64,000 nt of DNA from Eledone cirrhosa. Taxonomy: Eukaryota. The DNA lies in NCBI GenBank assembly GCA_964016885.1, contig OZ024743.1, positions 43,958,001 through 44,022,000 on the forward strand. Reading direction: 5' to 3'. Position 1 is the first letter of the stretch; each line of letters begins with the position of its first letter. Made by a program: the position numbers and the translations under genes. Positions 2,469-63,992 of this stretch are shown here, piece by piece. A model generated the notes under the pieces. It saw nothing but the letters and a program-made list of their open reading frames with translations. It searched no databases and was not told the origin of the DNA.

Positions 2469-2520
<52 letters not shown>

Positions 2521-2643
2521 GAATATAGACATAGAATATTCGAAAATATTCTGTATGTTTATAATAAACATTTTGAAGACCTAATCGCTATAGAATAGAA
2601 TACGTCACGTATTACAATTAGATTCTCGATAAAAGCAAGGGAA

Positions 2644-4236
2644 GTAATCTACGCGTTTCATTCTTGTTAGAAATCATCAGGACTACATATCCAGTGCTTT
2701 TATCGAGAATGACACAGCTAGAGACTTATAGAATACTTAGCTGTGTACAGGAACTGGTTTGAAAGAGCGGTTGCCGGTCCGGCAGAAATTAGAAATTGGA
2801 ATAAATGCTCTGAAATAGCGATATATATGTGAATATAGACATAGAATATTCGAAAATATTCTGTATGTTTATAATAAACATTTTGAAGACCTAATCGCTA
2901 TAGAATAGAATACGTCACGTATTACAATTAGATTCTCGATAAAAGCAAGGGAAGTAATCTACGCGTTTCATTCTTGTTAGAAATCATCAGGACTACATAT
3001 CCAGTGCTTTTATCGAGAATGACACAGCTAGAGACTTATAGAATACTTAGCTGTGTACAGGAACTGGTTTGAAAGAGCGGTTGCCGGTTCGGCAGAAATT
3101 AGAAATTGGAATAAATGCTCTGAAATAGCGATATATATGTGAATATAGACATAGAATATTCGAAAATATTCTGTATGTTTATAATAAACATTTTGAAGAC
3201 CTAATCGCTATAGAATAGAATACGTCACGTATTACAATTAGATTCTCGATAAAAGCAAGGGAAGTAATCTACGCGTTTCATTCTTGTTAGAAATCATCAG
3301 GACTACATATCCAGTGCTTTTATCGAGAATGACACAGCTAGAGACTTATAGAATACTTAGCTGTGTACAGGAACTGGTTTGAAAGAGCGGTTGCCGGTCC
3401 GGCAGAAATTAGAAATTGGAATAAATGCTCTGAAATAGCGATATATATGTGAATATAGACATAGAATATTCGAAAATATTCTGTATGTTTATAATAAACA
3501 TTTTGAAAACCTAATCGCTATAGAATAGAATACGTCACGTATTACAATTAGATTCTCGATAAAAGCAAGGGAAGTAATCTACGCGTTTCATTCTTGTTAG
3601 AAATCATCAGGACTACATATCCAGTGCTTTTATCGAGAATGACACAGCTAGAGACTTATAGAATACTTAGCTGTGTACAGGAACTGGTTTGAAAGAGCGG
3701 TTGCCGGTCCGGCAGAAATTAGAAATTGGAATAAATGCTCTGAAATAGCGATATATATGTGAATATAGACATAGAATATTCGAAAATATTCTGTATGTTT
3801 ATAATAAACATTTTGAAGACCTAATCGTTATAGAATAGAATACGTCACGTATTACAATTAGATTCTCGATAAAAGCAAGGGAAGTAATCTACGCGTTTCA
3901 TTCTTGTTAGAAATCATCAGGACTACATATCCAGTGCTTTTATCGAGAATGACACAGCTAGAGACTTATAGAATACTTAGCTGTGTACAGGAACTGGTTT
4001 GAAAGAGCGGTTGCCGGTCCGGCAGAAATTAGAAATTGGAATAAATGCTCTGAAATAGCGATATATATGTGAATATAGACATAGAATATTCGAAAATATT
4101 CTGTATGTTTATAATAAACATTTTGAAGACCTAATCGCTATAGAATAGAATACGTCACGTATTACAATTAGATTCTCGATAAAAGCAAGGGAAGTAATCT
4201 ACGCGTTTCATTCTTGTTAGAAATCATCAGGACTAC
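2644..4236 (-). ncRNA. Six type I hammerhead motifs (one per unit: 2644-2686, 2954-2996, 3264-3306, 3574-3616, 3884-3926, 4194-4236)
   Basis: Minus strand reads GUAGUC-CUGAUGA-UUUCUAACAAGAAU-GAAA-CGCG-UA/GAUUAC: stem I 6 bp, stem II UUCU/AGAA, palindromic stem III. Confidence 0.9.
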
Positions 4237-4607
4237 ATATCCAGTGCTTTTATCGAGAATGACACAGCTAGAGACTTATAGAATACTTAGCTGTGTACAG
4301 GATCTGGTTTGAAAGAGCGGTTGCCGGTCCGGCAGAAATTAGAAATTGCTTTTATCGAGAATCTAATTGTAATACGTGACGTATTCTATTCTATAGCGAT
4401 TAGGTCTCCAAAATGTTTATTATAAACATACAGAATATTTTCGAATATTCTATGTCTATATTCACATATATATCGCTATTTCAGAGCATTTATTCCAATT
4501 TCTAATTTCTGCCGGACCGGCAACCGCTCTTTCAAACCAGTTCCTGTACACAGCTAAGTATTCTATAAGTCTCTAGCTGTGTCATTCTCGATAAAAGCAC
4601 TGGATAT

Positions 4608-5270
4608 GTAGTCCTGATGATTTCTAACAAGAATGAAACGCGTAGATTACTTCCCTTGCTTTTATCGAGAATCTAATTGTAATACGTGACGTATTCTATT
4701 CTATAGCGATTAGGTCTTCAAAATGTTTATTATAAACATACAGAATATTTTCGAATATTCTATGTCTATATTCACATATATATCGCTATTTCAGAGCATT
4801 TATTCCAATTTCTAATTTCTGCCGGACCGGCAACCGCTCTTTCAAACCAGTTCCTGTACACAGCTAAGTATTCTATAAGTCTCTAGCTGTGTCATTCTCG
4901 ATAAAAGCACTGGATATGTAGTCCTGATGATTTCTAACAAGAATGAAACGCGTAGATTACTTCCCTTGCTTTTATCGAGAATCTAATTGTAATACGTGAC
5001 GTATTCTATTCTATAGCGATTAGGTCTTCAAAATGTTTATTATAAACATACAGAATATTTTCGAATATTCTATGTCTATATTCACATATATATCGCTATT
5101 TCAGAGCATTTATTCCAATTTCTAATTTCTGCCGGACCGGCAACCGCTCTTTCAAACCAGTTCCTGTACACAGCTAAGTATTCTATAAGTCTCTAGCTGT
5201 GTCATTCTCGATAAAAGCACTGGATATGTAGTCCTGATGATTTCTAACAAGAATGAAACGCGTAGATTAC
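4608..5270 (+). ncRNA. Three type I hammerhead motifs (4608-4650, 4918-4960, 5228-5270)
   Basis: GTAGTC CTGATGA(4614-4620) TTTCTAACAAGAAT GAAA CGCG TA GATTAC, enclosed by a 15-bp stem TTCTCGATAAAAGCA/TGCTTTTATCGAGAA. Confidence 0.9.
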
Positions 5271-5469
5271 TTCCCTTGCTTTTATCGAGAATCTAATTGT
5301 AATACGTGACGTATTCTATTCTATAGCGATTAGGTCTTCAAAATGTTTATTATAAACATACAGAATATTTTCGAATATTCTATGTCTATATTCACATATA
5401 TATCGCTATTTCAGAGCATTTATTCCAATTTCATATGTATATATATATATATGTATATATATATATACA

Positions 5470-5563
<94 letters not shown>

Positions 5564-5564
5564 C

Positions 5565-5634
<70 letters not shown>

Positions 5635-5677
5635 TTATATATATATGTATATATAGATATACATATATATATAGATA

Positions 5678-6087
5678 TATCACAGAAAAAAAGAGAATCA
5701 GTTTTACGACGAATGGAATTTATTGGACATATTACAATCACTTCTCTGGCGAGCAGCTCGAGACACGATCGAATTTGATGATTGAACGTGACTCTGAAAA
5801 TCGCAAGGTCCTCAGATACGTCTTGATTCTACGAAGCAGATTTTCCTATTTCCTTCGTAGAATCAAGACGTATCTGAGGACCTTGCAATTGTCAGAGTCA
5901 GGTTCTATCATCATATCGATCGTGCCTCGAACTAGTCACCAGAGAAACGATTGTAATATGTCCAATAAATTCAATTCGTCGCAACACTGATTCTCTTTTT
6001 TTCTGTGATATCATACTCTGCACTATGAGAGCACCGAGTGCTCACACAGCCTACCGCATACGGACGCTTTAAGCATCCAACACCAAT

Positions 6088-18449: not shown

Positions 18450-21322
18450 ACGACAAATCAGGGCATTGTATACACGACTCCAGCCGCAAGATTTCGAAGT
18501 GTATCCTTCCATATTTACCAATTTACCGGCCGGGTACTAGGCGCACTAACACAGCCAGCCATCACCAAAACACGCTGTCTGCACGTATAGATCGCAGTCC
18601 CCCAAAATCTGCCAACATTCCCAACGTGAGAGGCTATGTCTGCTGACCGACTGTCCCTTTACTCATCTTCCTGGCACACAACGCACGAACAGAAAAGGGG
18701 CTTCATGCCAACCCACAAACCACATAAAGCCACCCCCTGCTGCGGTAATACTGCTCCAGTCTCCTCACAAAGACATGATTACAACAACAAAAACAACAAA
18801 AGTAATGCTGCTCCAGTCTTGTCACAAAGACACGATCACAACAACAACAAATACAACAACAAAAATAACGCTGCTCCAGTCTTTTCACAAAGACACAATT
18901 ACAACAAATACAACAGAAACAACAAAAGAGGGAACTGCAACCCTATCCGATGTTGTAACCACAAATCCAATCAAAAACTGCTTCCTGAACAAAAAGAAAA
19001 TCTTTCTTGTTTAGCCATGAAACTGGCAAAAGAGATAGAGAAAAACATTTTAGCCATCACCCAACACCAACCTTGCTGTCACTAACACACAATCACAAAA
19101 CAAGCTCCCTGCAACAGTCAAAACCAGCCACCATACTAGCCTCCACATTCTTACTGAATACACAAGCTATCAGCCGATCGATCAATGCACAAAAATGGAA
19201 GATCCAATTCATTGAGTATTGGGTTGGTAACCATCCATTTCACATCCCCTTCTTCATTCTTACTGAGACCCACATTGACATCTCCCACTTGGAGGCCGAA
19301 GTAAGAGTGAGTAATTTCACAACCATCCGTGCGGATCGTGTTGGCAGAAGGAAGGGTGGAACTGCCATTTTCCTGCATGATTCCTTTACGGCAGATGGCA
19401 ACCCAACATTCTCTAATGGATACTGTGAGTCAGTCACTGTGTACAATAAATCCAATGACCTGACATTAGTTTGGCTCTATAGGCCACCACAAACACCCAT
19501 AATCTGTTTCAAAGAATGCCTGAACAGTATTAAATGCTTTATTAAACAGTGCCATTCTAGCAACATACTTTTGATGGGAGACTTTAATCTACCCTGTGTC
19601 GATTGATCTACATGTAGTTTGAAACCAGGCTCCACAGCCTCAACCACTGACAAAGAGGCTGTCGAGTCACTTCTTGACTTCATGAATGAGTTTTTCTTGT
19701 CCCAACTTGTCCTTGCACCAACGAGGCATCATAATAACATTCTAGATCTAGTGTTTAGTAAACACACTAACACTATACATAATATTACAGTGGAAAAAAC
19801 CATTCTCTCAGACCATGACATGGTTCTTTGTAACCTGAGATTCCACCAGCCGAAAGCTAATCCCAGGGTCCTCTCTCCAGCCCACCCACTTGATAAAAAG
19901 GATCTCCACAATGCCAACTGGGATGCAATTATGAACGAACTATCACATGTCGACTGGTCTTTTACACACGCACACACTTCCACCAACATCAAAACATCTT
20001 GGCAGATTTTTGTAGACACTATCACAAATATATGTACAAAACACACCCCACCAAAACCTGTGAACAAAACCAAGTGCAGTATGCCCCAAAACAGAAAAAC
20101 AATTATCAGAAAAATAAAAAGAACAAACAAAAAAATTAACACACTAAAATACTGCCAACAGCAACACACACATTCAATGGCTATCACCCTGCTTGAGTCA
20201 AAAAAATGTAACCTCCGGCAATGCATGATGACCATCATCAATAACCAGAGAATAGCTGAACAGAGGTGGGCCATACATAAAATCAAACTCAACCCCAAAG
20301 TTGTCTTCTCATTCGCTAAAAAACACAAGGTCACCGTCTCCACTGTTGGCCCCTAGTTCATGAAAATGGCACACTCCAGGACAATGCCAAAGCCATGGGC
20401 GAGATACTGCAGAAACAGTACTGCTCTGTTTTCAACAACCCTGTTATGGCCGATCTGGGCCGTATCCGTGATATTAACTCCCAACACACTATATCAGACA
20501 TAACGTTTGGCGGCCCTGGTGTCTTAGATGCAATTAACGAAATTAAACACAATTCAGCAGTAGGCCCCGATAGGTTCCCTGCTTGTGTCCTGAAGGTGTG
20601 TCGACACCAACATGCAACTCCTCTTGCTAATCTGTGGAGGATCTCACTGGACACTGGCTATATTCCGTTCTGTCCCAGTCCGTTGTCCCAGTCTTCAAAA
20701 AGGGAAATAGATCCCTTGCAGTGAACTACCGTCCGATCTCACTCAGCTCTCATATTATCAAGGTATTTGAGAGGGTGGTGAGATCACGAATACCCACTTT
20801 CTTGAAAGCAACGGCCTGCTGAAATTCAACCAACATGGATTCCGTAATGGAAGTGACTGCCTAACGCAGCTCCTGCATCACTTTGAGGATGTTTTGAGAG
20901 CCTTGGGGAGGGCTCCAGAACTGATGTCATCTACCTTGATTTCAGCAGGGCCTGCAACAGGGTTGATCATAAGATTCTACTGAAAAAACTATCCAATGTT
21001 GGTGTCTCTGGAAGGTTACTACAGTGGATCAAATGTTTCCTGACAGGCAGAACCCAGCATGTTGTAGTCGAAGGAGTAAATTCAAGCCCTGCCAAAGTCA
21101 GCAGTGGCGTCCCACAAGGCACAGTGATGGGCCCACTTCTTTTCATCATCTACATTAATTACATTACTGACATCATCAAACACATCAACATCAGAATCTT
21201 CGCAGATGATTCCAAGCTCCAAAGGCTCATCAATGAGGTGGTTAACCGGACTTGCCTTCAGTCAGACCTACTGGCTGTTATCCAATGGGCAGAGATGAAT
21301 AATATGCTGTTGAATGAGGATA
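18450..21322 (+). mobile_element. CR1-group LINE (ORF1 remnant, APE and RT), 3'-truncated
   Basis: Cys/His-rich ORF1 remnant with three ~57-60 nt repeats (18750-18920). APE motifs ILTETH, RADR..RKGG.AI, LYRPP, LMGDFNLP, NILDLVF and SDH. RT motifs NYRPISL, SGVPQGTV.GPLLF and FADDSKL. Frameshifted, and cut at ~21322 by a Penelope pLTR. Confidence 0.92.
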
Positions 21323-21324
21323 TA

Positions 21325-21835
21325 TTGACTCCAACAATTACACCACTACCAACATAAGAATAGAGGTCAGATGTACCTAACAATAACAAGAACAACAACT
21401 ACAGATTCGCTTGCCTCAGAACGAATTTCTATATATTTTGACTGAGGAATGTTCTAACAACTGACGATTGAGAGCCGAAGGGGCCCTTTGACGCTGAAAT
21501 TCGTTTGTTTAAATTCATAGGATTCCAGTTTCTCACAGAAATAACAACCCAACCAGGAACTGGGCATAGCAGAGTATTGACAAAGTTATACACCTCAACA
21601 ACATGTGTACTCGTCTCTACCACACTAATTCGGACTGCCTGAAGAGGTCACAGCCAAAAGTGGCAGTCTCCGAAATATATATAGCAGTAATAAACGAAGC
21701 CACATTTCAAACATTTGACTTATTTATTTTATTTTATTATACATCACCCCGGTGTAACAAAACCAACCTGCGAACTTCGTCGAGTGCCCCAATCTGCATA
21801 CTGATGTGTTGGTATACAACCAACATATACTCAAT
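21325..21835 (+). mobile_element. Family A Penelope pLTR (solo copy)
   Basis: Homologous to 23450-23940 (reverse) and 25855-26270. Contains an HHR. Confidence 0.85.
21634..21688 (+). ncRNA. Type I hammerhead, family A
   Basis: ACTGC CTGAAGA GGTCACAGCC AAAAGT GGCAGTCTCC GAAA TATATA TA GCAGT. Confidence 0.85.
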
Positions 21836-23641: not shown

Positions 23642-26166
23642 CCGAATTAGTATGGTAGAGACGAGTACACATGTTGTTGAGGTCAATACTCTGCTAGGCC
23701 CAGTTCCTGGTTGGGTTGTTAATCTCTGAGGAACTGGAATCATATGAATTTAAACAAACGTATTTCAGCTTCTTCAAAGGGCCTCTTCTCCTCTCATTTT
23801 TCAGTTGTTAGAACATTCCTCAGTCAACAGTCTATAGAAATTCATTCTGAGGCAAGCCGATCTGTAGTTGTTGTTCTTGTTATTGTTAGGAACATCTGAC
23901 CTCTATTCTTATGTTGGTAGTGGTGTAATTGTTGGAGTCAGCTCAAAAAAATTATAAAGTGGTAGAAGGAATAACATGGTAAAGGGACAACATAAAATAA
24001 AATGTGTGTGTATGTTATACCCATCTCAATGTTATAAAGATTTGTAAGGTCACTCTTTCAATTGGTCAGTTTTGATAGCATTCCTCATTCCAAAGTCTAT
24101 AGAAATTCTTTCTGGGATGACTCTCCCTGTAGTGTTTGTGTTTGCTATTGTTATGTACATCTGACCTCTAACCTTATTTTATGTAGTGTTTTTGGTGTTG
24201 TGGTCAGCTTATGTCTTGCTGCTGCTGACAATTTAGAAGTATCTGTGTGTGTGTTTCTTAATCCCTCCTGCCACCATCTCCCGTACTGCTGGTGGTGGTG
24301 GTGGTGGGTGTTCTGCCATGTATATGAAGAAATAGAGGCAAGAAAATGAAGAAAACAGAAAATAAACAATAAATAGAGAATAAAGAATAAATGAAAAATT
24401 AATGAAAAAGTAAATGAAAATTAATGGAAAATGAAAATGGAGAATGAAAAATGAAAATGAAAAGTGAAAAATAAAAATGAAGATTCAAATAAAATATGAT
24501 AAAATGTATGTGTGCTATAACCAATCTCAAGGTCAGAAATATGTTGGATAAAGTGGTAGGAGGAACAAGATGGTAAAGAATAAAGCGAAATAAGATAATC
24601 AAATAAAATGTGTGTGTTTTATAACCAATCTCAACATAAATATAAGGTGATAAAGTGAAGAAAACAGAAAACAATAACAAATGAATAATGAGAAATCAAA
24701 AATGAAAAATAAAAAATCCAGTAAAGTAAAATGTGTGTGTGTTATAAAGATGTTGGCCAAATTATAAAGGCTGTGTCAGAATCAATCTCTAGGCTATCAT
24801 GGTGTCTGCTCAGCCAGGGTTGGTCCCTATGGCTTGAGGCGAGTTCCCAACCTATGGTGTTTCTACTGCCTATATAGCTTGAGGGAGGTCTGGCCGAGAG
24901 GTGTCTACATGTTCTGAAGAAGTCCCTATAGCTTGAGGGGAGTTCACATCTTATTGTGTTGCTATTGTGCATATATCTTGAGGAAGATCCCGGCCCTGAG
25001 GTGTCTGCATGTCCTGAATAAGTCGGTCCTGAGGTTTATCAGGCCGCATCCACCTCCTAGTATCTCGAGTATCTCGTTCAGACATAGTTTGCATATGCAA
25101 GATCCCCCTTTATCGGGTGGTACATTCTTGATTATGGACCAGGCCAGAGAGTACGGGGTCCTGTCCAGCTTAAGCTTCCAGATCAGGTCCGAGAGAGCCG
25201 TACTTTTCCTTTTGGCCTCCTTATTGAAGGAATGGGGTTGGTTATACCAGCGGTCTTTAAAGCTCGTTGATGTGACTCCTATGTCGGGGTGTTCTGAGTT
25301 GGGGGTTTTAACCCTACAACCGTATACTAGGTTCTTCTTAAGGCATTCATTACCAAGAGGGCATGATTCGGGGTTTCTGCAGTTTCAGTGGGTGGTGTGA
25401 GCACTGGGTCCCCCTTCTCTCCTTTCACATGGTTCTGCTGAGTGCTTGTATTGCCATCTTCTGGTTCTGGGTGGTTTTTAAGCCTACTCCTGTTGATGCT
25501 AGCTATGTGTTGGGCCATATTTCTCGTGGTGGAATACGAGAGCTTCACAGTGTGTCTGTTGAAGATTTTGTGGTATCTATGGTTGCTCGAGAAGCATTTA
25601 TCAAATACCAAAATAAGGGTAGAGGTCAGATATACTTAACAATAGCAAACACAAACACTACAGGGAGCCTCACCCCAGAAATAATTTCTATAGACTTGTG
25701 ACTGAGGAATGCTCTCAAAACTGACCAATGGGAAGAGTGACCTTACAAATCTTTATAACATTGAGATGGGTATAACACACACACACATTTTATTTTATTT
25801 TATTTTGTCCCTTTACCATCTTATTCCTTCTACCACTTTATCATTTTTTTGAGCTGACTCCAACAATTACACCACTACCAACATAAGAATAGAGGTCATA
25901 TGTACCTAACAATAACAAGAACAACAACTACAGATCGGCTTGCCTCAGAATGAATTTCTATAGACTTTTGACTGAGGAATGTTCTAACAACTGACAAATG
26001 AGAGGAGAAGAGGCCCTTTGAAGAGGCTGAAATACGTTTGTTTAAATTCATATGATTCCAGTTCCTCAGTGAAATAAGGACCCAACCAGGAACTGGGCAT
26101 ACCAGAGTATTGACAAAGTTATACACCTGAACAACATGTGTACTCGTCTCTACCACACTAATTCGG

Positions 26167-29536: not shown

Positions 29537-29574
29537 CGTTATTCCGGGTTGAATCGGAGGTAACTACAGTAAGT

Positions 29575-31404
29575 ACGTTTCGTTGAGGCTTTCCCGTCTT
29601 TCCACCAATGAACGTATTTTCAACGACCATTCCACATATTACTATGAAGCTCTTGCTCGAAGTGGATTTGTCGATAAGGTAGCATATACAGAGTACGATA
29701 ATAGATCTAGAAGTAATAGACCCCGTCGCATGTGTTGGTATAACCCACCATATAATATGGAGGTGGCCACACCATTAGCTAAGATCTTTCTTTCCCTTAT
29801 TACGAAGCATTTTCCCCCTACACATAAATATAGTAACATTTTTAATAGAAATACTATTAAAATTTCTTACTCTATGACTCCTAACCTTGCACATAACATC
29901 ACAGCTTCAAATTTAGCTAAACTACCTAGCCGTAGAAACACGTGCAACCCTGTAGTTAGTACTAACTGTAATTGCAAGAATCGGGCTGATTGCCCCATTC
30001 TGGGAAATGCCTCTCTAGTAACATTGTCTACAAATGTAAGGTTGTAATACCCATGTCCCGTAGGGCCTACATAGGGTTAACCGCCAATAGATTCAAGCAG
30101 CGTCTTTACATGCATACCCATTCTTTTCGTTACCCTCTAAGAAGGAATATGACGTCACTTTCAGCTTATATCTGGAGTCTAAAAGACAACCACACCCAAT
30201 ATAAGTTACACTGGGAGATCCTAGCTAGGGCTAGATCGTATAACGGAAATAAAAGACCATGTGACCTCTGCGCCGCTGAGGCCCTGGAAATACTCTACGC
30301 CACAGGCCACTTCTTAAACAAAACATCTGAGGCAATTTCGGCTTGTAAACATAAATTGCACAAAACTTTCCTGTATTACAGCCCCACGTTATACCATAAC
30401 GGATACTACGATCTATACGTGGATATTTTACGTCTTGATGTGGGAGCTAAGTATATGTTTTCTTTATACCTTTACTTATTTGCATAGGTAAGTATATATT
30501 ACCCGTATGTTTTGTGAAGGTACGTATACCTTCTCGTACGCATATTTGATTGGTATGGCGTATAATTGTATATATTCTGGTACATATGGCTATGTGTATA
30601 CGGGAGATTTGCGTCTGTGTGAGTATGCAGGTTCGTACGTATGGCGGGTGTGTGTATACGTGTACTTCATGTTTTGTTTGACTTGCGTCTCCGAACATTC
30701 GTGTGATTATATGATGGTATGTGTGTGCGCTTGTTATATACGTATTTATTTATTTATATATGTTTATATAATTATTTATTTATTTGTATACACGCATATA
30801 CACACACACACATATTTATATGTGCGGGGTTTTGTATACCTATGGTAAGTTTTTGCGTATGCTGGTGCATGTACGTATTTGTTTGCGTGTATGTATTTAT
30901 TTATTTCTATTACTTCTGTATTGTATTTATTTACTTTGTTCTTAACTCTGTAGCGGTGATTCATTTGGGCTCCTTGTTAGAATTTTAGTCTACAACTTCT
31001 GCTATACCATTTACGTGGTTTTGTCTTTGCGTGCAATTGTTCTCCACGCTCCACATATGACGTATTATCTTCGTTTTTTCGTTCATTGCCAGAGAACGTC
31101 TCTATGCACCACCTAAGAGAACATTAGTCTACGACCTCTTTTATACCATAAAAGTGGTTTTGTCTTTGCGCGTAATTGTTTTTCACCGCTCCTATTAATG
31201 ACGTATTATTCGTTTTTTCCCGTTCTTTGCCTGCGAACGTTACCACGAACCACAGTATCGTCTTCCTGTCTTCCTCCGGTTGCAACGTTTTTTGAAATAT
31301 CCATTTCTGCGTTTACAGATTGACTTTGTTAGTTTCAGAAGATCCCGTTAAATGTGAAAGCAGCGATTCTTTGCTTAAACTTTAATCTGTTATTTTAATA
31401 AATA
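29575..31404 (+). mobile_element. Penelope-like element 2 (RT thumb, linker, GIY-YIG and 3' region with HHR)
   Basis: [59 protein letters not shown] and CDLCAAE, with a frameshift near 30000. A ~139-nt tandem duplication at 30986-31240. Ends with an HHR and AATAAA. Confidence 0.92.
31315..31390 (+). ncRNA. Type I hammerhead with U4A core (CAGAAGA), family C
   Basis: ACAGATTGA..AGTTT CAGAAGA TCCCGTTAAATGT GAAA GCA..TGC TT AAACT TTAATCTGT, with an extended stem I. Confidence 0.7.
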
Positions 31405-33354: not shown

Positions 33355-34612
33355 TTAGCCATCGGGCTTTAACACTGGCTTAAAGTATTTGAAAGTTGCA
33401 AAGTTCTTGTGCATGCAGTTCGGGCAGTGTTCGGAGAGTTTGTTCAGTAGCGGGCCCTTGGCGAATAACATTTCGTAGCTCCCTGAGAGACAAAGGTCGC
33501 AGCCCTTGTGTCCTCCGTTGTAATATCGCGCTTGCTGGAGTATTTTCCATTTAAGCGTGAAGGGGGTGGAATTCCTTTTGAGGTCCCAAACATAGGAGGC
33601 GAGTGTTGTCTGGTTTGATTTGTCCGGTCTTCTGAAGGAGTGGGTATGGGCATACCAACGGGTCTTAATATTGTTGGAGGTCATGCCGATGTTTTTTTTT
33701 TGTTATTGCAATCATCGTTGCCTGAGATGACATCGCATTTGTATACGATATCATTTGTGAGGTATTTGTTTTCAAGTGGGCATGCTTCCTTATTTAGGCA
33801 ATTACACACAGCCCCAGTCCGGGGATTGGGTTCTGAGGTGGTTGGCTTATTTAATTTTTTAGAATTGTGGTTGGCTATATTCCTAGCTAGGTTAGGTGTG
33901 GTGGAGTAGGAGAGTCTTATTGTGTTCTTATTAAAGATGGTGTGGTACCTATGTTGTATGAGGAAGTGCAATTTCAGCAAAGTGAAGAAAATCCTAGCTA
34001 TCGGTGTAGAGACCTCTCTATTGAAGGGAGGGTTGTACCAGCTAATCTGCCTATGCCTATTCCTCTGCAATCTTGCGGTGGTTTCTAGGTAGGTTATCTT
34101 TTCTTTAAATCCGCTGCGGGCGAGGGCTTCATTGTAGTAGGAGGCAGAGGCGTTCAAAATATCTTTGTTGGCGGAGAGGCCAGATATTCTAATAGAGACG
34201 CTTTTTACTAGGTTATCAGTGATGTTTTGGGGGTGGTTTGAATTAACATTAATATATCTAAGGGACTCGTTAGGTTTGTGGTACGGGTAATAGAGGGAAG
34301 TATCTAGGTCGAGATTGACATCTAAGAAGTTGGTCCTAGTCAAATTAGATTCTATAGTTATACTAAATCCTAGATTAGAGAAGAACGAGCTTAAGTTTTT
34401 CCGAAACCCATCAGTGGTTCTGGGGTTAACCTTATGCAGGGCGAAGAGGCCGTCGTCTCGGTATAAACCTCCGGTTAGGCCGGTAAAGAGGTTCTTCAGG
34501 TGATGTAGGATGTACAAGCCCACAAGGTCGCGAATTTCAGCCGAGTCACTCGCTCCCATGCTAACGTCAAATGGGGTCTGAGATTTCTTGTTGATCCCCA
34601 GTAAGATCCATC
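33355..34612 (-). mobile_element. Penelope-like element 3 (RT core to GIY-YIG), 5'-truncated
   Basis: FDVSMGASDSAEI.DLVGLYIL, GLYRDDGL, NFLDVNLDL, PYHKPN...YINVNSNHP, WYNPPF, IVYKC and GMTSNNIKTRWYAH, with a frameshift at the poly-T near 33695. Confidence 0.95.
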
Positions 34613-34648
34613 GTGGTATATAAATACCATACTTATTTTTTGATACCC

Positions 34649-34699
34649 AGATTCCTGATGATTTCTAAAGAATGAAACAATTCTAGTCCCGTAGAATCT
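34649..34699 (+). ncRNA. Type I hammerhead, family F, inverted at the 5' truncation point of PLE 3
   Basis: AGATTC CTGATGA TTTCTAAAGAAT GAAA C AATTCTAGTCCC G TA GAATCT. Confidence 0.85.
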
Positions 34700-49353: not shown

Positions 49354-52300
49354 AGGTTTAATAACTGGTTATTCTTCTAACTATCCCTTATGAAGTCACC
49401 TTTTATTCGAATTCGTAGAGATATCCCACTAAATACATAATTCATTTTACAAGGATGTGCTACAAACAGAATGGCTGAACACAACATCAACAACAAAATT
49501 AAGGAAGTACCGAAGACAGATAACAAGGAAGGTAATCAAACTTTATTCAGTTGTAGCTACAGAAGAAACCGAAAATATAAATCGCATTTCTCTTGGGGTT
49601 GCGAACTTAATAATGATTTATTTAATTGTTATAAATTGGCAAAAAACAATCCCTTCATTGGCTATATGAATAGAATGAAGTTACACTGGGACGAAATTCA
49701 TCCAGAGCTAAATTATTTCACAGCGAAACAATTACGCCAACAAGCGACGTTTGTTGAACGTAAATATAAGATAAATATTATTAATTGTAAGTTCCTAACA
49801 ACAACACATGTTCTCAACAACACGTGTTATCAACAAACATATTAACAACAACACGTCGCCATGCTACTAGACTTCCTAGTAGCCAGGTCGAACAGCGTCT
49901 TGAAACAACTATGCCTGTAACAAACTTGACACCACCTGTACCATCTAAGTCTACCTCGAATGCTGGGGAAAACACTATCGATAATAATAATAATCGAAGA
50001 AATTTGACACCACGTGTACCATCCGAGTCTACCTCGACTATTGTGGAAAATACTATCGATAATGATAATCAAAAGTATAAACAATTGAAAATTTCCCTCA
50101 ATGAAATCTTCCAGAGAGAAATTAACTCATGTATAAACATATCTCTGGCTGAACGTGTTAAAACGACAATGTTGAATAAAAAACTAAATAATGAAATATT
50201 ACGTGTTGTTGACGAAATAGGGGATTTATATTTACGACGGATAAAAACCCCATGATTTTGGCAAATCAACGCCTGTTTATATGCCTTAGAAATGACAGTG
50301 AAGCATTATCTTGGTGATAGCAGATATATTAACAAGAACAAAACACCACCATAAATACCATCATATATAACTAAAATAGAAAAAAAGATTGCTGACCTAC
50401 GAAAAAACATAAGATATGCTCCTTACATGCAAACAAACACAAAAAACCTCACTCCTCACCAACAATGAGTGAAAAATAAAATAGAGACGATGTTTGGTAA
50501 CAGTAGAACCAGAACTCTCCAATATAATCTGATCACCCTCAAACAAGAATTGAGAGCTCTTAGCGAATAACGCCGATACATTATGAAGGTAGATGAGAGA
50601 AAATTGCTTAATAAAAGATTCAGACGAAACCAAAAGCAGTCTATAGAGATATGAAGGGCAAAATAATAATTGTTACTGAGGCCCCATCCTAGAAAGACAT
50701 AGATTCCTTTTGGAGCAAAATATGGGATGAAAAGATGAATTTCAACGAAGATGCAGTGTGGCTAAGAGATATCCGAAATAACTATTGCTCCTACACTACA
50801 ACAAAAACATACAAAATAAGTGAGGTAACCGTTGAAACTGTGATAGGAAAACTCCAAGATAATAAAACACCAGGAAGAGACATGATTATCGGCTACTGGT
50901 AAAAAAAACTGATATTCTATCGGAGGTATCTTACTGACCTCTATCAACAAGTTCTTAAGGGAGATACACTTATACCAGAATGGTTGACATTAGCACACAC
51001 ATTACTGGTCCCCAAGAAGAAAGACACCCACTTGGCAAAAAACTACCGACCCATTGCATCCCAGAACCTGATGTATAAGATGTATACAGCCTGCCTGAAC
51101 CTATTCCTCCAAGATCACTGTGAAAATAATAACATCATCACAGATGAACAGACAGCTGGAAAGAAAACGGTTTGGGGATGTGCTGAACAACTCCTAAACA
51201 ACAAAACTGCGATGTCGGAGGTGCGACACCTTAGGAAGAATATGACTACAGTCTGGCTGGACTACAGGAAAGCTTTTGATTCTGTTTTCCTACTCTTGGA
51301 TGATAGAGGCCCTCCAACTTGCTAACGTCCCACACATTATTGTCAGGGCCATAGAGAGGCTGTCTTCTTCTGGGCTACTATCCTAAGGTTAAAGACAGAG
51401 AGGGAGGACTCTATTTTCAGTGTTAAAATAAAATATTGCAGGGGTATATCTCAGGGGGACAGTCTCTCTGTGATATTATTCATCTTGTCATTAAACCCCT
51501 TGTCATTTCTGCTTAAGAAATGTGAGGGATACATCATTGGCTCACATGAGGGCAGAAATACGAACCAAACCCATAATTCCTTTGTGGACGATCTGAAATT
51601 CCTATGCCAAGAACATTGATGGGATGAAGAAAAATCTTGACCTGGTTACAACTTTCTCAAAGGAAATAGGAATGGAGTTTGGCCAAGATAAATTCTCATA
51701 CATGACAGTAAAGCGGGGAAAAACAACAACCCAATCTAGCAACATTGTCATCAATGACCTAACTGTTTCACCGATATTTGATGAGGACTGCTACAGATAA
51801 CTGGGTATAGATGAGAACAAATCCTATAATGGTATATGTAATAAAGAACGCATAACCAAGGAATACTACATTCGATTAAGAACGATCTGGTCATCGGACC
51901 TTTCTGCGCAAAACAAAACAATGGCTCACAATGTGTTTGCTGTGCCTGTCCTAACACCAACGTTTGGAATACTCAATTGGAAGATAGACGAAATCCGAGC
52001 AGTTGATGTTGGAACTTAAATAATACTGAACAACACCGGAAACTTCCACATCAACAGTGACATAGACCGCCTTTACTTGAAAGGTAAGCAGGGAGGCAGA
52101 GGCCTAGCATCAGTCCAGACAACATTTGAATGTCGCATCATATCTCTCCGACAACATCTACGAACCTCGAAGCGTAGGAGCCTGTCACTCGAGCAAGTCT
52201 ATCTGCATGAAACAGATACGATCATGAGAGTTGGGAAGGAACGCCTCGAGAGATATTCCCTGTGTGATTATCAAAACCTCATACCCAGAGATGTCGCTCA

Positions 52301-53340
52301 GCAGTATGGCAGTGAATCCATGGATGAAAAACTGCATGCCTATCAGCAAAAAATCATACATGGATATGTTGCGAGGAAGCTCCAGAGTGAGAGTAATATA
52401 CATAAAGAAAGTAGTCTATCTTGGACCAGCAACCGCTATATTGGCTCCCACTTTGAAGGATACGCTTTTGAAATCCAGGAACAGGAGTTTAGCACGAAAT
52501 ACCTGATTCACAAAAGAGATAGGGATGCAGGCAAAACACCTAGATGTGATAACAAGTGCATACTCTGCAGAACTAACATCGAGGATATCACCCATGTCAT
52601 CAGCAGCTGTCCAAAGATGTCATCGCGGTACTATCTACCTATCAGGCATGATGTTGTGGCCAAAACACTGTACAATGCAGTTCGTAAAAAAGATAGCCCC
52701 GATAATAAACACATTAAAAGCTACAGCAACCTGGAAGACATCCATGTACATAATATGAAAGAGTACTGGTGGATTCTTCCAGTAAAAACCCAAATAAAAT
52801 GCAGGCCTAACAGACCAGATATTATGATATGGGACAGGGAGAAGAAAGCATACACAGTAGTGTAAATTAGCTGCCCAGCAGATGCCAATATAATATCAAA
52901 GATTAGTGAAAAGGTGAACATTTATGCAGAACTGATGAGAAATCTGCAGATACTCCACCCTGATTACACCTTCAGATTTATGCCTGTGATTATTGAGGCA
53001 TGGGATATGTTAGTAACTGCTTCAATACAAATCTAGAGAAGCTAGGCTTCACAGGAACAGAAAGAACACAACTAGTTAGGAAATTACAAGTACAATCCAT
53101 TAATGGAACAGTAAAAATATGTAAGACATTCCAAAAATGTTGCATCTAATAACTGCATATACACTTATACAGATGCAAAGCATATACACATGCACACATA
53201 CAACTCAAAACATACACATCCACACATACAATAACATCCATATCTACACATGCATGCATACATAATCTACTTAGTTGATGTTGTGTAAATTCCATTTTCT
53301 ATTGGGAAAAAAATTGTTAAATTATAAAACCAGAAGAACG
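49354..53340 (+). mobile_element. R4/Dong-like site-specific non-LTR retrotransposon (RT, CCHC and RLE endonuclease), decayed, near full length
   Basis: KNYRPIA..NLMYK, VWLDYRKAFDSV, GISQGDSLS, FVDDLK, GGRGL, CILCRTNIEDITHVISSC..Y..RHD.V and NRPDIMIWDREKK...ISCP (PD-D/ExK). Many stops. Bounded by (TACA)n. Confidence 0.92.
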
Positions 53341-54944: not shown

Positions 54945-55085
54945 TCATTTCTATAGCTGAGTAAACTGGAGCAACGTGAAATAAAGTGTCTTGCTCAAGG
55001 AAACAATACATCACCTGGTGCAAGAATTCAACTCACAACCTTTCGATTGCAAGCCCAATGCTCTAACCACTAAGCCATGCGCCTT
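54945..55085 (-). mobile_element. SINE family 2
   Basis: CTGGAGCAACGTGAAATAAAGTGTCTTGCTCAAGG..AACCACTAAGCCA. Confidence 0.8.
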
Positions 55086-61599: not shown

Positions 61600-63992
61600 G
61601 ACGTGTAAAAACATATAACAAATAAAATTCAACAATCGAAGTCCTCAATAGGGAGGGGACGTTGACGTGGGTCGCACACACCCCCGAAAAAAATGTGCAA
61701 CCCTACTCCTCATCAGGAGCACAAAGAGCGTGTGCTCCCTTCCTATCCTCTTTCTTCTCCTCTCTCACCTATATAAAACTTGCTGGGGTAGAGCACCTCT
61801 CTCTCCATTCTGATCTTTCTTCTAAAATGGTATTTGAAAAAAAGGACCAGTTGTTGACACGGAGGGAAAGGTGCCTGACATCAGCCCTTTCAACCTCGTC
61901 CACCATTCAACCTCTTTAGCCATAGAGGAAAACCGCCTCACCTCTGTTTTGAATAGGGGGGGGGGGCGGTTTGATCGTGATAATGTACTCGGTGGTGAAC
62001 AGGATTGGTCCCACCCGCTACAGTAGTTGTTCCACATAGCCCCACAGGTCAGCAACGTCCGGGCAGTGTACGAATGCGTGCGCGACGGTTGCTTCGTCAC
62101 GCACGCATCTCGGACAGATCTTTTTCGAGGGGTCCCTACCCGGGCGCCCGTGTCTGTAGAACTTGCCCCGAACGGGTAGAGCTCCTCGGTAGCACTGCCA
62201 AGCCATAGACTTTTGGAAATTGTTCATCGGTCCCGGGCCAAACGTCCTACCGAACAGACTGGCTACTTCGTCTTCCTTCATGCCCAGAGATTCTTCGAGA
62301 GCGACGTCGCACTTTCTGCGCACCAACCCTCTATAGAATGTCGAGGTGGAGTCTCCACTGATTGCCGGATCCGCTTGCCAGAGGGCCGTGAGCGCCTCGT
62401 CACATTCAATGTGCCACTCGCCCACTTTTCTCAGTCTTTGCTTGACTCAGGATTGCAGCTCGGTGAGCGAGACGAGTCTCGGAAAGGCTCGGCTCACAAA
62501 AGGGGACCACACCGGTTGACCTGTTAGAAATACCTGGAGGTGCCGTAGCCTTAATGCATGTTTACGCATCGTCAGCCATGGCACCCACAGCCCTCCATTC
62601 GAAGACTGTTGACAGCAGATGGATCTTCTCACCAAAGGGGCCCGCTTCTTCCAAAGGGATTGGAAGAGCGCGCACTCCATTTTGGCGAGCGTTTCGCTGG
62701 GCAAGGCACGACGGTCAAGTGGTAGTAGATGACAGACGCTATATAAGTGTTCGCCACCTCCGCTCGACCTGTTAGGGATAGTTTGCACTCGGCCCACTTC
62801 TAGGCGAGTGCAAACACCCTGCCCGTTACCTCGTCCCAGATTTTCTCCACCTGGAGGTTTGGTCCGAACCAGATCCCGAGCAGCTTCACCGGTCCTCCGT
62901 CCCACGTCCGACGACGCTGTCGGAGGGCATCGGTTTGGCTCTCCATGTTCCGAGTTGCAAACCGACGGACTTGTCCCGGTTCAGCTTGGCTCCTGTAAAC
63001 CTTTCGTATTCCTCCAGTATGTGCCGATCTCCCCGATTTGCGAGACGCTCGACACCATTACTGTCACATCATCGGCGTAGGCCGACAACGCTTTCCCCAA
63101 TCCCGGTTCCAAGGCGATGCTCTGTAACAGCTCCAACTTCCGCAGTAATAGCTCGAGAGCCAGCACATACAGAAGGGAGGACAGAGGGCATCCCTGTCGG
63201 ATGGATCGCGTGATTTGGAACGGCTCCGACAGGTAGCCGTTAACCTTGACCCTCAAACAGGTGTTGCCGCTGTGCATTGCAGCAATACAGCCCCTGAAAA
63301 CGGGTCCGATGCCTGTCGCCGCGAACACCGCATCCAGGTACCGATGGTCGACCCTATCGAACGCCTTAGATTGATCCAAGTTGATCAGGGCCCCACCAAA
63401 GCTGGGTGCATTCCCTACCATATCTACGATGTATGGCATGAGATGGAGGTTGTCGTGTATGGACCTGGACGTGATTGCGCATGTCGGCCCTTCTCCCACC
63501 AGGTTCCTGAGGACAAGCGCCAACCTCTTCCCTAACACCTTGGCCAAAATATTTAACTCTGTATTTAGCAGAGTTATGGGTCTGAAGTTATCTATGTCAT
63601 CCCCCTTGTTCTCATCCTTCCTGACTAGCGTGAATACGCCCTTGGTCACAGAACTGGGAATTCTCCCGTTCTGTTGCCAGTTGCAGTAGACCGCCTCGAG
63701 GAGCTCAAGTCCGGCATCGCTACATAATGTTCGTATGGTAGACCATCGAGACCCGGAGATTTGTGTTTGCCGCATCGGCTCAGCGCTTTCCCTATTTCAG
63801 CGGCTGACAGAGAGATGCATAGATCTCAAAGTCGTCGAAGATGGGGGCCAGTTGGTGCTCGCTGCTGATCCTGGACTCGCAAATAGCTATTACATCCATT
63901 CTGTGCGACCTGAGGTCATTTAAGTGTTTGCCCTGCTTCCAGGATATCCCCAGGCCGCACACATTTAAACATCCAACTCTTATGACAGCCAT
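61600..63992 (-). mobile_element. L1/Tx1-type LINE ORF2 (APE N-terminus, internal deletion, RT, zf-RVT)
   Basis: MAVIRVGCLNVCGL..DVIAICES (APE start), NFRPITLLN, LINLDQSKAFDRVDH, IRQGCPLS.LLY, SAYADD, GGL and CPRC....TVAHAFVHCP. Frameshifted. Confidence 0.93.

Follow-up and report, generated by a model that had tools for sequence, protein, structure and literature searches.

What kind of event could leave a tandem hammerhead array inside a (TA)n tract with some of its units facing one way and the rest the other? We examined this question in a 64,000-nucleotide stretch of the Eledone cirrhosa genome (hereafter, the window), in which 9.4 units with a period of 310 bp form two arms, with 5 substitutions in 2,912 bases (Table 1). 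A sequence-only reading of this stretch had reported about 9.4 units of 310 bp with five listed substitutions, one intact type I hammerhead per unit and no ORF, and six hammerheads pointing leftward and three rightward from 4346-4348 within (TA)n, all of which our re-analysis bore out. The internal substitutions are exactly five (3089, 3508, 3828, 4303 and 4408), and a sixth mismatch, at 2519, is the boundary between arm and TA tract. Hammerhead cores are intact in 9/9 cases, six on the minus strand (from 2650-2680 to 4200-4230) and three on the plus strand (4614-4644, 4924-4954 and 5234-5264). When the unit is numbered from the first base 3' of the predicted cut, the tail-less arm has its outer 3' end at unit position 130 and its inner end at 162-165, and the tailed arm has its inner end at position 12 and its outer 3' end at position 168. 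The unit is non-coding (no ATG-started ORF of the multimer exceeds 30 aa) and holds no RT or GIY-YIG endonuclease ORF; it is therefore not an autonomous PLE.

Table 1. Features of the hammerhead array and its flanks (window coordinates).
Feature	Position	Strand	Remark
(TA)n target tract, left	2378 to ~2520	no strand	
Tail-less arm	2520-4348	minus	5.9 tandem 310-nt units, six hammerheads
Head-to-head junction of two 5'-truncated arms	4346-4348		3-nt microhomology (TTG overlap)
Tailed arm	4346-5432	plus	3.5 units, three hammerheads
One type I hammerhead	4584-4672	plus	core at 4614-4644; stem I extended, closing stem of 16 bp
Predicted cut	after 4644	plus	predicted from the hammerhead consensus
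One cut-to-cut monomer	4645-4954	plus	predicted (putative) 310-nt circle
PLE-type tail	5395-5432	plus	between two fixed RT start sites, this end only
(TA)n target tract, right	5433-5680	no strand	

The monomer was predicted to fold at -72.5 kcal/mol (z = -4.4; 0/100 shuffles fold equally well), in keeping with the earlier claim of a highly structured unit, although the closing stem measured 16 bp and not the 15 bp given there. The ribozyme is a full-size type I hammerhead: stem II carries a loop, stem I is interrupted by an internal loop, and helix III is palindromic and very short. Its previous description as a minimal type I hammerhead with a palindromic stem III thus holds for helix III, which is minimal and palindromic, and fails for the rest of the motif, where the stem II loop and the stem I internal loop are present. 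The ribozyme aligned weakly over all 77 positions of Rfam HH9 (19 bits, E = 0.033, well short of the gathering score of 52), and a search of the window returned no hammerhead family at Rfam gathering. In a folding model that leaves tertiary contacts outside, the active hammerhead fold has -20.2 kcal/mol against -31.9 kcal/mol for the lowest-energy fold. Since helix III is weak, cleavage may be slow; folding also suggests that the palindromic helix III could pair between two copies.

We then sought further copies in the 3.0-Gb genome. A 38-nt core pattern gave 4,493 exact matches (2,294 + 2,199; reversed control 0) and a relaxed pattern gave 4,059 further matches, the 100 listed being all one variant of this family (family A), which brings the hammerhead-core matches genome-wide to more than 8,500 for the strict and relaxed patterns together. 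The tailed end of family A is found in 1,096 exact copies. The retrozyme family is young, abundant and dispersed over many loci. We parsed 71 insertions, drawn from the window, 10 regions picked by hammerhead and 59 picked by the tailed (165) end; all sampled loci other than the window come from the first part of contig C1. For the 59 regions picked by the 165 end, only the short end and the inversion count as tests. Two loci (L033 and L178) look chimeric, but an N run separates their parts, and they were left out of the count.

The arrangement in the window proved to be that of the family. Two divergent arms were present in 63/71 insertions; in 4 others an N run or the end of the sequence interrupts the insertion, and the remaining 4 were single-armed (L038, L060, L171 and L176), of which L171 is a family A insertion in the internal TA run of a second family, B. 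Wherever both ends of a two-arm insertion were in view, one was tailed and the other short (59/59). Tailed ends lay at 165-168 (63/63 arms), and the two-arm insertions that had not been picked by this end (n = 9; the window and eight picked by hammerhead) also had it at 165-170. Short ends lay at 118-139 with modes at 130 and 139; haplotype variants and a TA-like stretch of the unit make this position less sharp. The distance between 130-139 and 165, roughly 26-35 nt, matches the PLE tail, and TA runs formed 100/122 outer flanks. Inner ends, by comparison, were near uniform over the unit (chi-square p = 0.24). Arms overlapped at their junction mostly by 0-6 nt, with several junctions passing through the 16-bp stem and a few holding foreign filler between the arms, which measures 272 nt in L037 and in L189 consists of 54 nt from a dispersed repeat. 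The filler in L037 (2899-3170) is C-rich and has no match among the sampled loci.

Both outer ends are thus 3' ends of the hammerhead-sense strand at fixed sites, and therefore both are priming sites. The sequence-only reading had proposed a single RT with a template switch, which predicts one random outer end, whereas both ends were fixed in 59/59 complete insertions, which means two priming events; with each arm primed on its own by the target, the inversion needs no template switch. What survives of that proposal is a single retrozyme insertion made by PLE machinery, with a 310-nt circle as its probable template. The link that the reading drew between retrozyme concatemers and the PLE inversion signature is real, and stronger than was claimed, because inversion is the rule of the family.

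L1 twin priming starts from primers on both target strands and leaves an inverted segment with microhomology at the join; one cDNA is then predicted to stop where the other starts. The window had hinted at in-register twin priming of this sort, as one arm stops at 162 and the other starts at 168. Across the sample, however, short arms stop at 155-175 in only 6/63 cases (p = 0.25), and we rejected in-register twin priming on one linear concatemer; unlike in L1, both primers also sit at fixed unit sites. Run-off at cleaved 5' ends was rejected as well, with 4/126 inner ends within 10 nt of the cut. An excess of inner ends at positions 1-30 (21/126, p = 0.01) was noted post hoc and comes partly from junctions via the 16-bp stem.

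The shape of the template was examined through sequence variants shared by the units of an insertion. The 57 loci with full coverage carry 27 haplotypes, of which 18 occur a single time, and two random loci share a haplotype with a chance of 0.074. With arm ends trimmed by 25 nt, the haplotype was fixed in all units of both arms in 42/45 informative insertions, and length variants of 308 and 311 nt are among these fixed differences. In nine arrays of 8-21 units the haplotype was unique in the sample and minor variants numbered 0-5 per array, and no crossing of the cleavage site had a private indel nearby (0/564). The window array has the commonest haplotype of the sample, so the window alone cannot show a circular template, and the other loci supply the evidence. 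For a new variant to reach every unit, it must pass through a monomer bottleneck and then be re-amplified. The rate of minor variants was flat with array length (rho -0.14, p = 0.32), and 18/30 arrays of at least 8 units had at most one minor variant; such long, clean arrays and the lack of a trend of divergence with length favour amplification at insertion, and thus rolling on a circle. As far as sequence can tell, this pattern favours rolling reverse transcription of a monomer circle.

The same variants bear on the ribozyme. Counting distinct substitutions at paired or core positions, and setting aside two fixed and two singleton insertions, we found that fixed substitutions kept pairing in 7/7 cases and hit the core in 0/7, whereas singleton substitutions kept pairing in 1/14 and broke a pair or the core in 13/14 (Fisher p = 7e-5). 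Because pairing is kept in fixed variants, it appears that the copies that propagate keep a working fold, as would be expected if cleavage belongs to the cycle.

The explanation that we prefer, with a probability of about 0.68, is that the window array is a non-autonomous non-LTR retrozyme insertion, PLE-primed at two sites, with rolling cDNA synthesis on a 310-nt circle. Multimeric transcripts would self-cleave, probably as double hammerheads, and be ligated to 310-nt circles. A PLE RT-endonuclease would then cut both strands of a (TA)n tract, and each 3' end would prime cDNA on the same template, at unit positions ~130-139 and ~165, where the ends are seen to be fixed. Both cDNAs would circle the template a variable, non-integer number of times and would stop near-randomly and join head to head by the short microhomology that is observed, leaving two divergent arms and one tail.

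The best-surviving alternative keeps the same two-ended PLE priming and takes as the usual template an uncleaved linear multimer from a homogeneous genomic array, with circles rarely or never needed. Slow cleavage by a weak helix III would suit it, and two loci speak in its favour with heterogeneity that is identical unit by unit from the outer end in both arms. In L179, both arms begin with two units of one haplotype and switch to another at the same unit, and in L159 a variant is shared at the same unit index of both arms; these loci point to a multimer template rather than a monomer circle, or to a joint switch. Elsewhere, a haplotype switch lies within one arm (L059) and a variant occurs in one arm only (L187). 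Among testable minor variants, however, 47/52 were private to one arm. Copying of a linear template offers by itself no way for a new variant to enter all units, and fixed haplotypes are nevertheless as numerous as counted above and mostly seen once. We consider a linear template unlikely as the usual one.

It is more improbable still that insertions were born short (~1 unit per arm) and that the arms later expanded as a satellite by unequal exchange or slippage. Local satellite amplification is favoured in the main text of Li et al. (10.64898/2026.07.22.740005), and the longest arrays here (L036, L037, L050 and L163) do have multi-unit variants, including a period-7 pair in L036, which suggest later DNA-level turnover. 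Expansion of this kind would nevertheless have to proceed separately in both arms with the native ends kept, and it sits poorly with the many long arrays that have at most one minor variant and with the flat relation of divergence to length. One long array (L163:410-8001) shows two linked substitutions in 5/25 units at non-periodic positions, either from array turnover or from repeated switching between two templates. Finally, it is scarcely credible that the array is an artefact of assembly or of fold-back reads, or that a satellite was inverted by chance at the DNA level: the window junction at 4346-4348 was not found in independent reads of public runs and four loci used in the counts contain 200-N runs, but 63 loci have unequal arms, nearly all different junctions and two fixed outer ends, contigs of one run (X2) have TA loose ends at 4783 (9 contigs) and 4814 (1), near both fixed sites, and three other element families share the design.

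Two-site priming on a circle, as we prefer it, calls on a PLE enzyme, and a candidate source is present in the genome. From an ORF next to one retrozyme locus (L056) we traced an intact, very young PLE unit of 4,279 bp that occurs in tandem and inverted copies (L191-L194). It holds an open frame of 1,279 codons, RT motifs, a Zn-finger-like linker, a GIY-YIG motif at the C terminus and a hammerhead of its own. By its motifs, on which the clade name is based, it appears Neptune/Nematis-like as defined in the main text of PMC8557442. Pfam gave a weak RVT_1 match in 1/4 PLE fragments and no match for the full PLE ORF. All of its scored matches were 99-100% identical (121/121), many of them in minus-then-plus pairs; its ends lie in (TA)n at 164 and 217-224 nt after its cut site, and its short end has 12,330 exact copies. 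An intact young PLE of the same two-arm, two-end, (TA)n design in the same genome argues for the explanation given above.

Whether this particular PLE is the partner is a separate matter. Its tail of ~55-60 nt, against ~30 nt in family A, fits family B better. The unit and the PLE showed no significant similarity when one PLE unit was aligned (18% of 300 shuffles score as well). In one of the four PLE loci fetched (L194), the PLE short end lies on the left and the retrozyme tailed end on the right, and in L138 an older copy of the PLE stands head to head with an older subfamily, A'; such fusions could also come from deletion between neighbouring insertions. Two other PLE families are also young (150/150 scored matches, at 97-100% and 98-100% identity). 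We conclude that dependence of the retrozyme on PLE machinery is very likely, and give the 4,279-bp element an even chance of being the partner. Further PLE or hammerhead elements were seen at L042:600-6400, L033:3283-6001, L046:100-1450 and L054:5300-5900, several with inverted arms, and two ORF families among them have many copies that are 97-100% identical.

A more specific model, which we put forward tentatively and at less than even odds, is that one dimeric PLE protein grips one small circle and primes both strands of the (TA)n cut at sites ~30 nt apart, so that both active sites roll together; the intact 4.28-kb PLE would be the driver, and several selected viroid-like circle families (A, A', B and C) would share the machinery. 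If true, a dimer on one circle would explain the PLE tail, the PLE inversion, the tandem arrays of retrozymes and the simultaneous switch in L179.

These other families resemble family A in several respects. Family B (L045:1508-5134; L091-L120), which gave 10,718 exact core matches, has a unit of about 480 nt (~470-530 nt) that includes an internal TA run and a hammerhead of the same design, and in many inspected loci its divergent arms end near 267 and 328 in (TA)n. The B array beside a PLE ORF in L045 had been considered as a pLTR; this was rejected, the array being the second retrozyme family. The older A' (L121-L150; ~320 nt) shares the tail motif (3,086 matches) and, in many inspected loci, the two-arm, two-end, (TA)n design; its hammerhead cores are decayed and its palindromic helix III is long. 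A third tandem hammerhead family, C (L178:1270-4500; ~470 nt), is related to B and has a similar ribozyme.

Known systems offer close parallels. By sequence criteria family A is a non-LTR retrozyme, and its insertion anatomy ties retrozymes to the two-site, two-strand mechanism of PLEs. As described in the main text of Cervera and de la Pena (2020; PMC7229834), metazoan non-LTR retrozymes such as newt satellite 2 and axolotl Rtz_331 and Rtz_353 likewise have tandem non-coding units of 170-400 nt, one type I hammerhead and low GC; the short palindromic helix III recalls HHR_Amex1, and helix II begins with a U.U pair that recalls HHR_Amex2. That work demonstrated circles for other animal retrozymes and offered mobilisation by PLEs as a hypothesis. 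Unlike the retrozymes described there, the insertions here are two-armed, tailed and (TA)n-targeted, and the circle, demonstrated there, is here a predicted one; the main text of PMC7229834 contains none of the terms 'inversion', 'target site' and 'microsatellite'. Vertebrate retrozymes, including those of Xenopus, are treated as PLE derivatives on the basis of shared distribution and pLTR homology in the main text of Li, Clavereau and Pollet (2026; 10.64898/2026.07.22.740005). They resemble family A in their co-occurrence with PLEs and proposed dependence on them; unlike theirs, the link here is the insertion anatomy, with no significant similarity to the candidate PLE pLTR, and 'inversion' and 'tail' occur 0 times in that main text.

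On the PLE side, the main text of Craig (2021; PMC8557442) describes insertions in which tandem copies are accompanied by a 5'-truncated copy in inverted orientation and one end carries a tail of 30-40 bp; it calls the cause of the tandem and inverted structures undefined and states a (TA)n bias for Naiads. Purified PLE protein (PAc) nicks and extends both strands, starting at two sites that bound the tail (Frangieh 2024; PMC11167929), and the main text of that paper leaves inversions, circles and retrozymes undiscussed. Family A thus resembles endonuclease-positive PLEs, as presented in these main texts, in its tandem and inverted 5'-truncated copies, one-end tail, (TA)n sites, two RT starts and use of both strands, and is unlike them in encoding no protein (PMC8557442; PMC11167929). 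Rolling of a PLE-type enzyme many times round a small RNA circle, the most likely mode of copying here, has been proposed before, and we found no evidence for it from genome sequence in the literature searched. The same search, of titles and abstract openings of papers whose supplements or figures could show such cases, returned no tailed, two-armed retrozyme insertions and no per-insertion haplotype fixation.

Family A links two questions: which machinery moves animal retrozymes, and why PLEs insert as tandem and inverted copies. The genomic evidence can be counted, in the form of dual starts at fixed sites, divergent arms that are nearly obligate, fixation of a haplotype within each insertion and selection for pairing in the ribozyme. 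The proposal is testable in vitro, with a 310-nt substrate that has mapped start sites and an intact PLE ORF with near-identical copies, both from the same genome. Genome-writing work would also have an interest in such a natural eukaryotic RT, if it does roll on small RNA circles and insert the long concatemers into the genome.

A near-identical unit (window 4645-4954) was also present in 20 public sequencing runs under 17 organism labels, with no RNA run among the holders listed. Two of these runs (X1 and X3) each had a single contig, of 340 nt and at a depth of 10-12, that goes back 310, which fits a circle or a DNA tandem equally. Horizontal transfer was not adopted as an explanation of the 17 labels, as trace DNA of a high-copy repeat could give the depth in X1 and X3; trace DNA, close relatives and transfer are all compatible with the labels.

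Elsewhere in the window we noted broken retroelement ORFs (18989-21354, 24965-25384, 29553-30484, 33684-34664, 49441-52862 and 61825-63796), which we take to be of non-LTR types or Hydra-like fragments of PLEs. A tRNA match at 55020-55077 is weak and probably SINE-derived. Adjoining the array lies a 335-bp fold-back (5677-6011) with arms of 96 and 69 nt that are 90% complementary, which is either a MITE or another short two-arm insertion.
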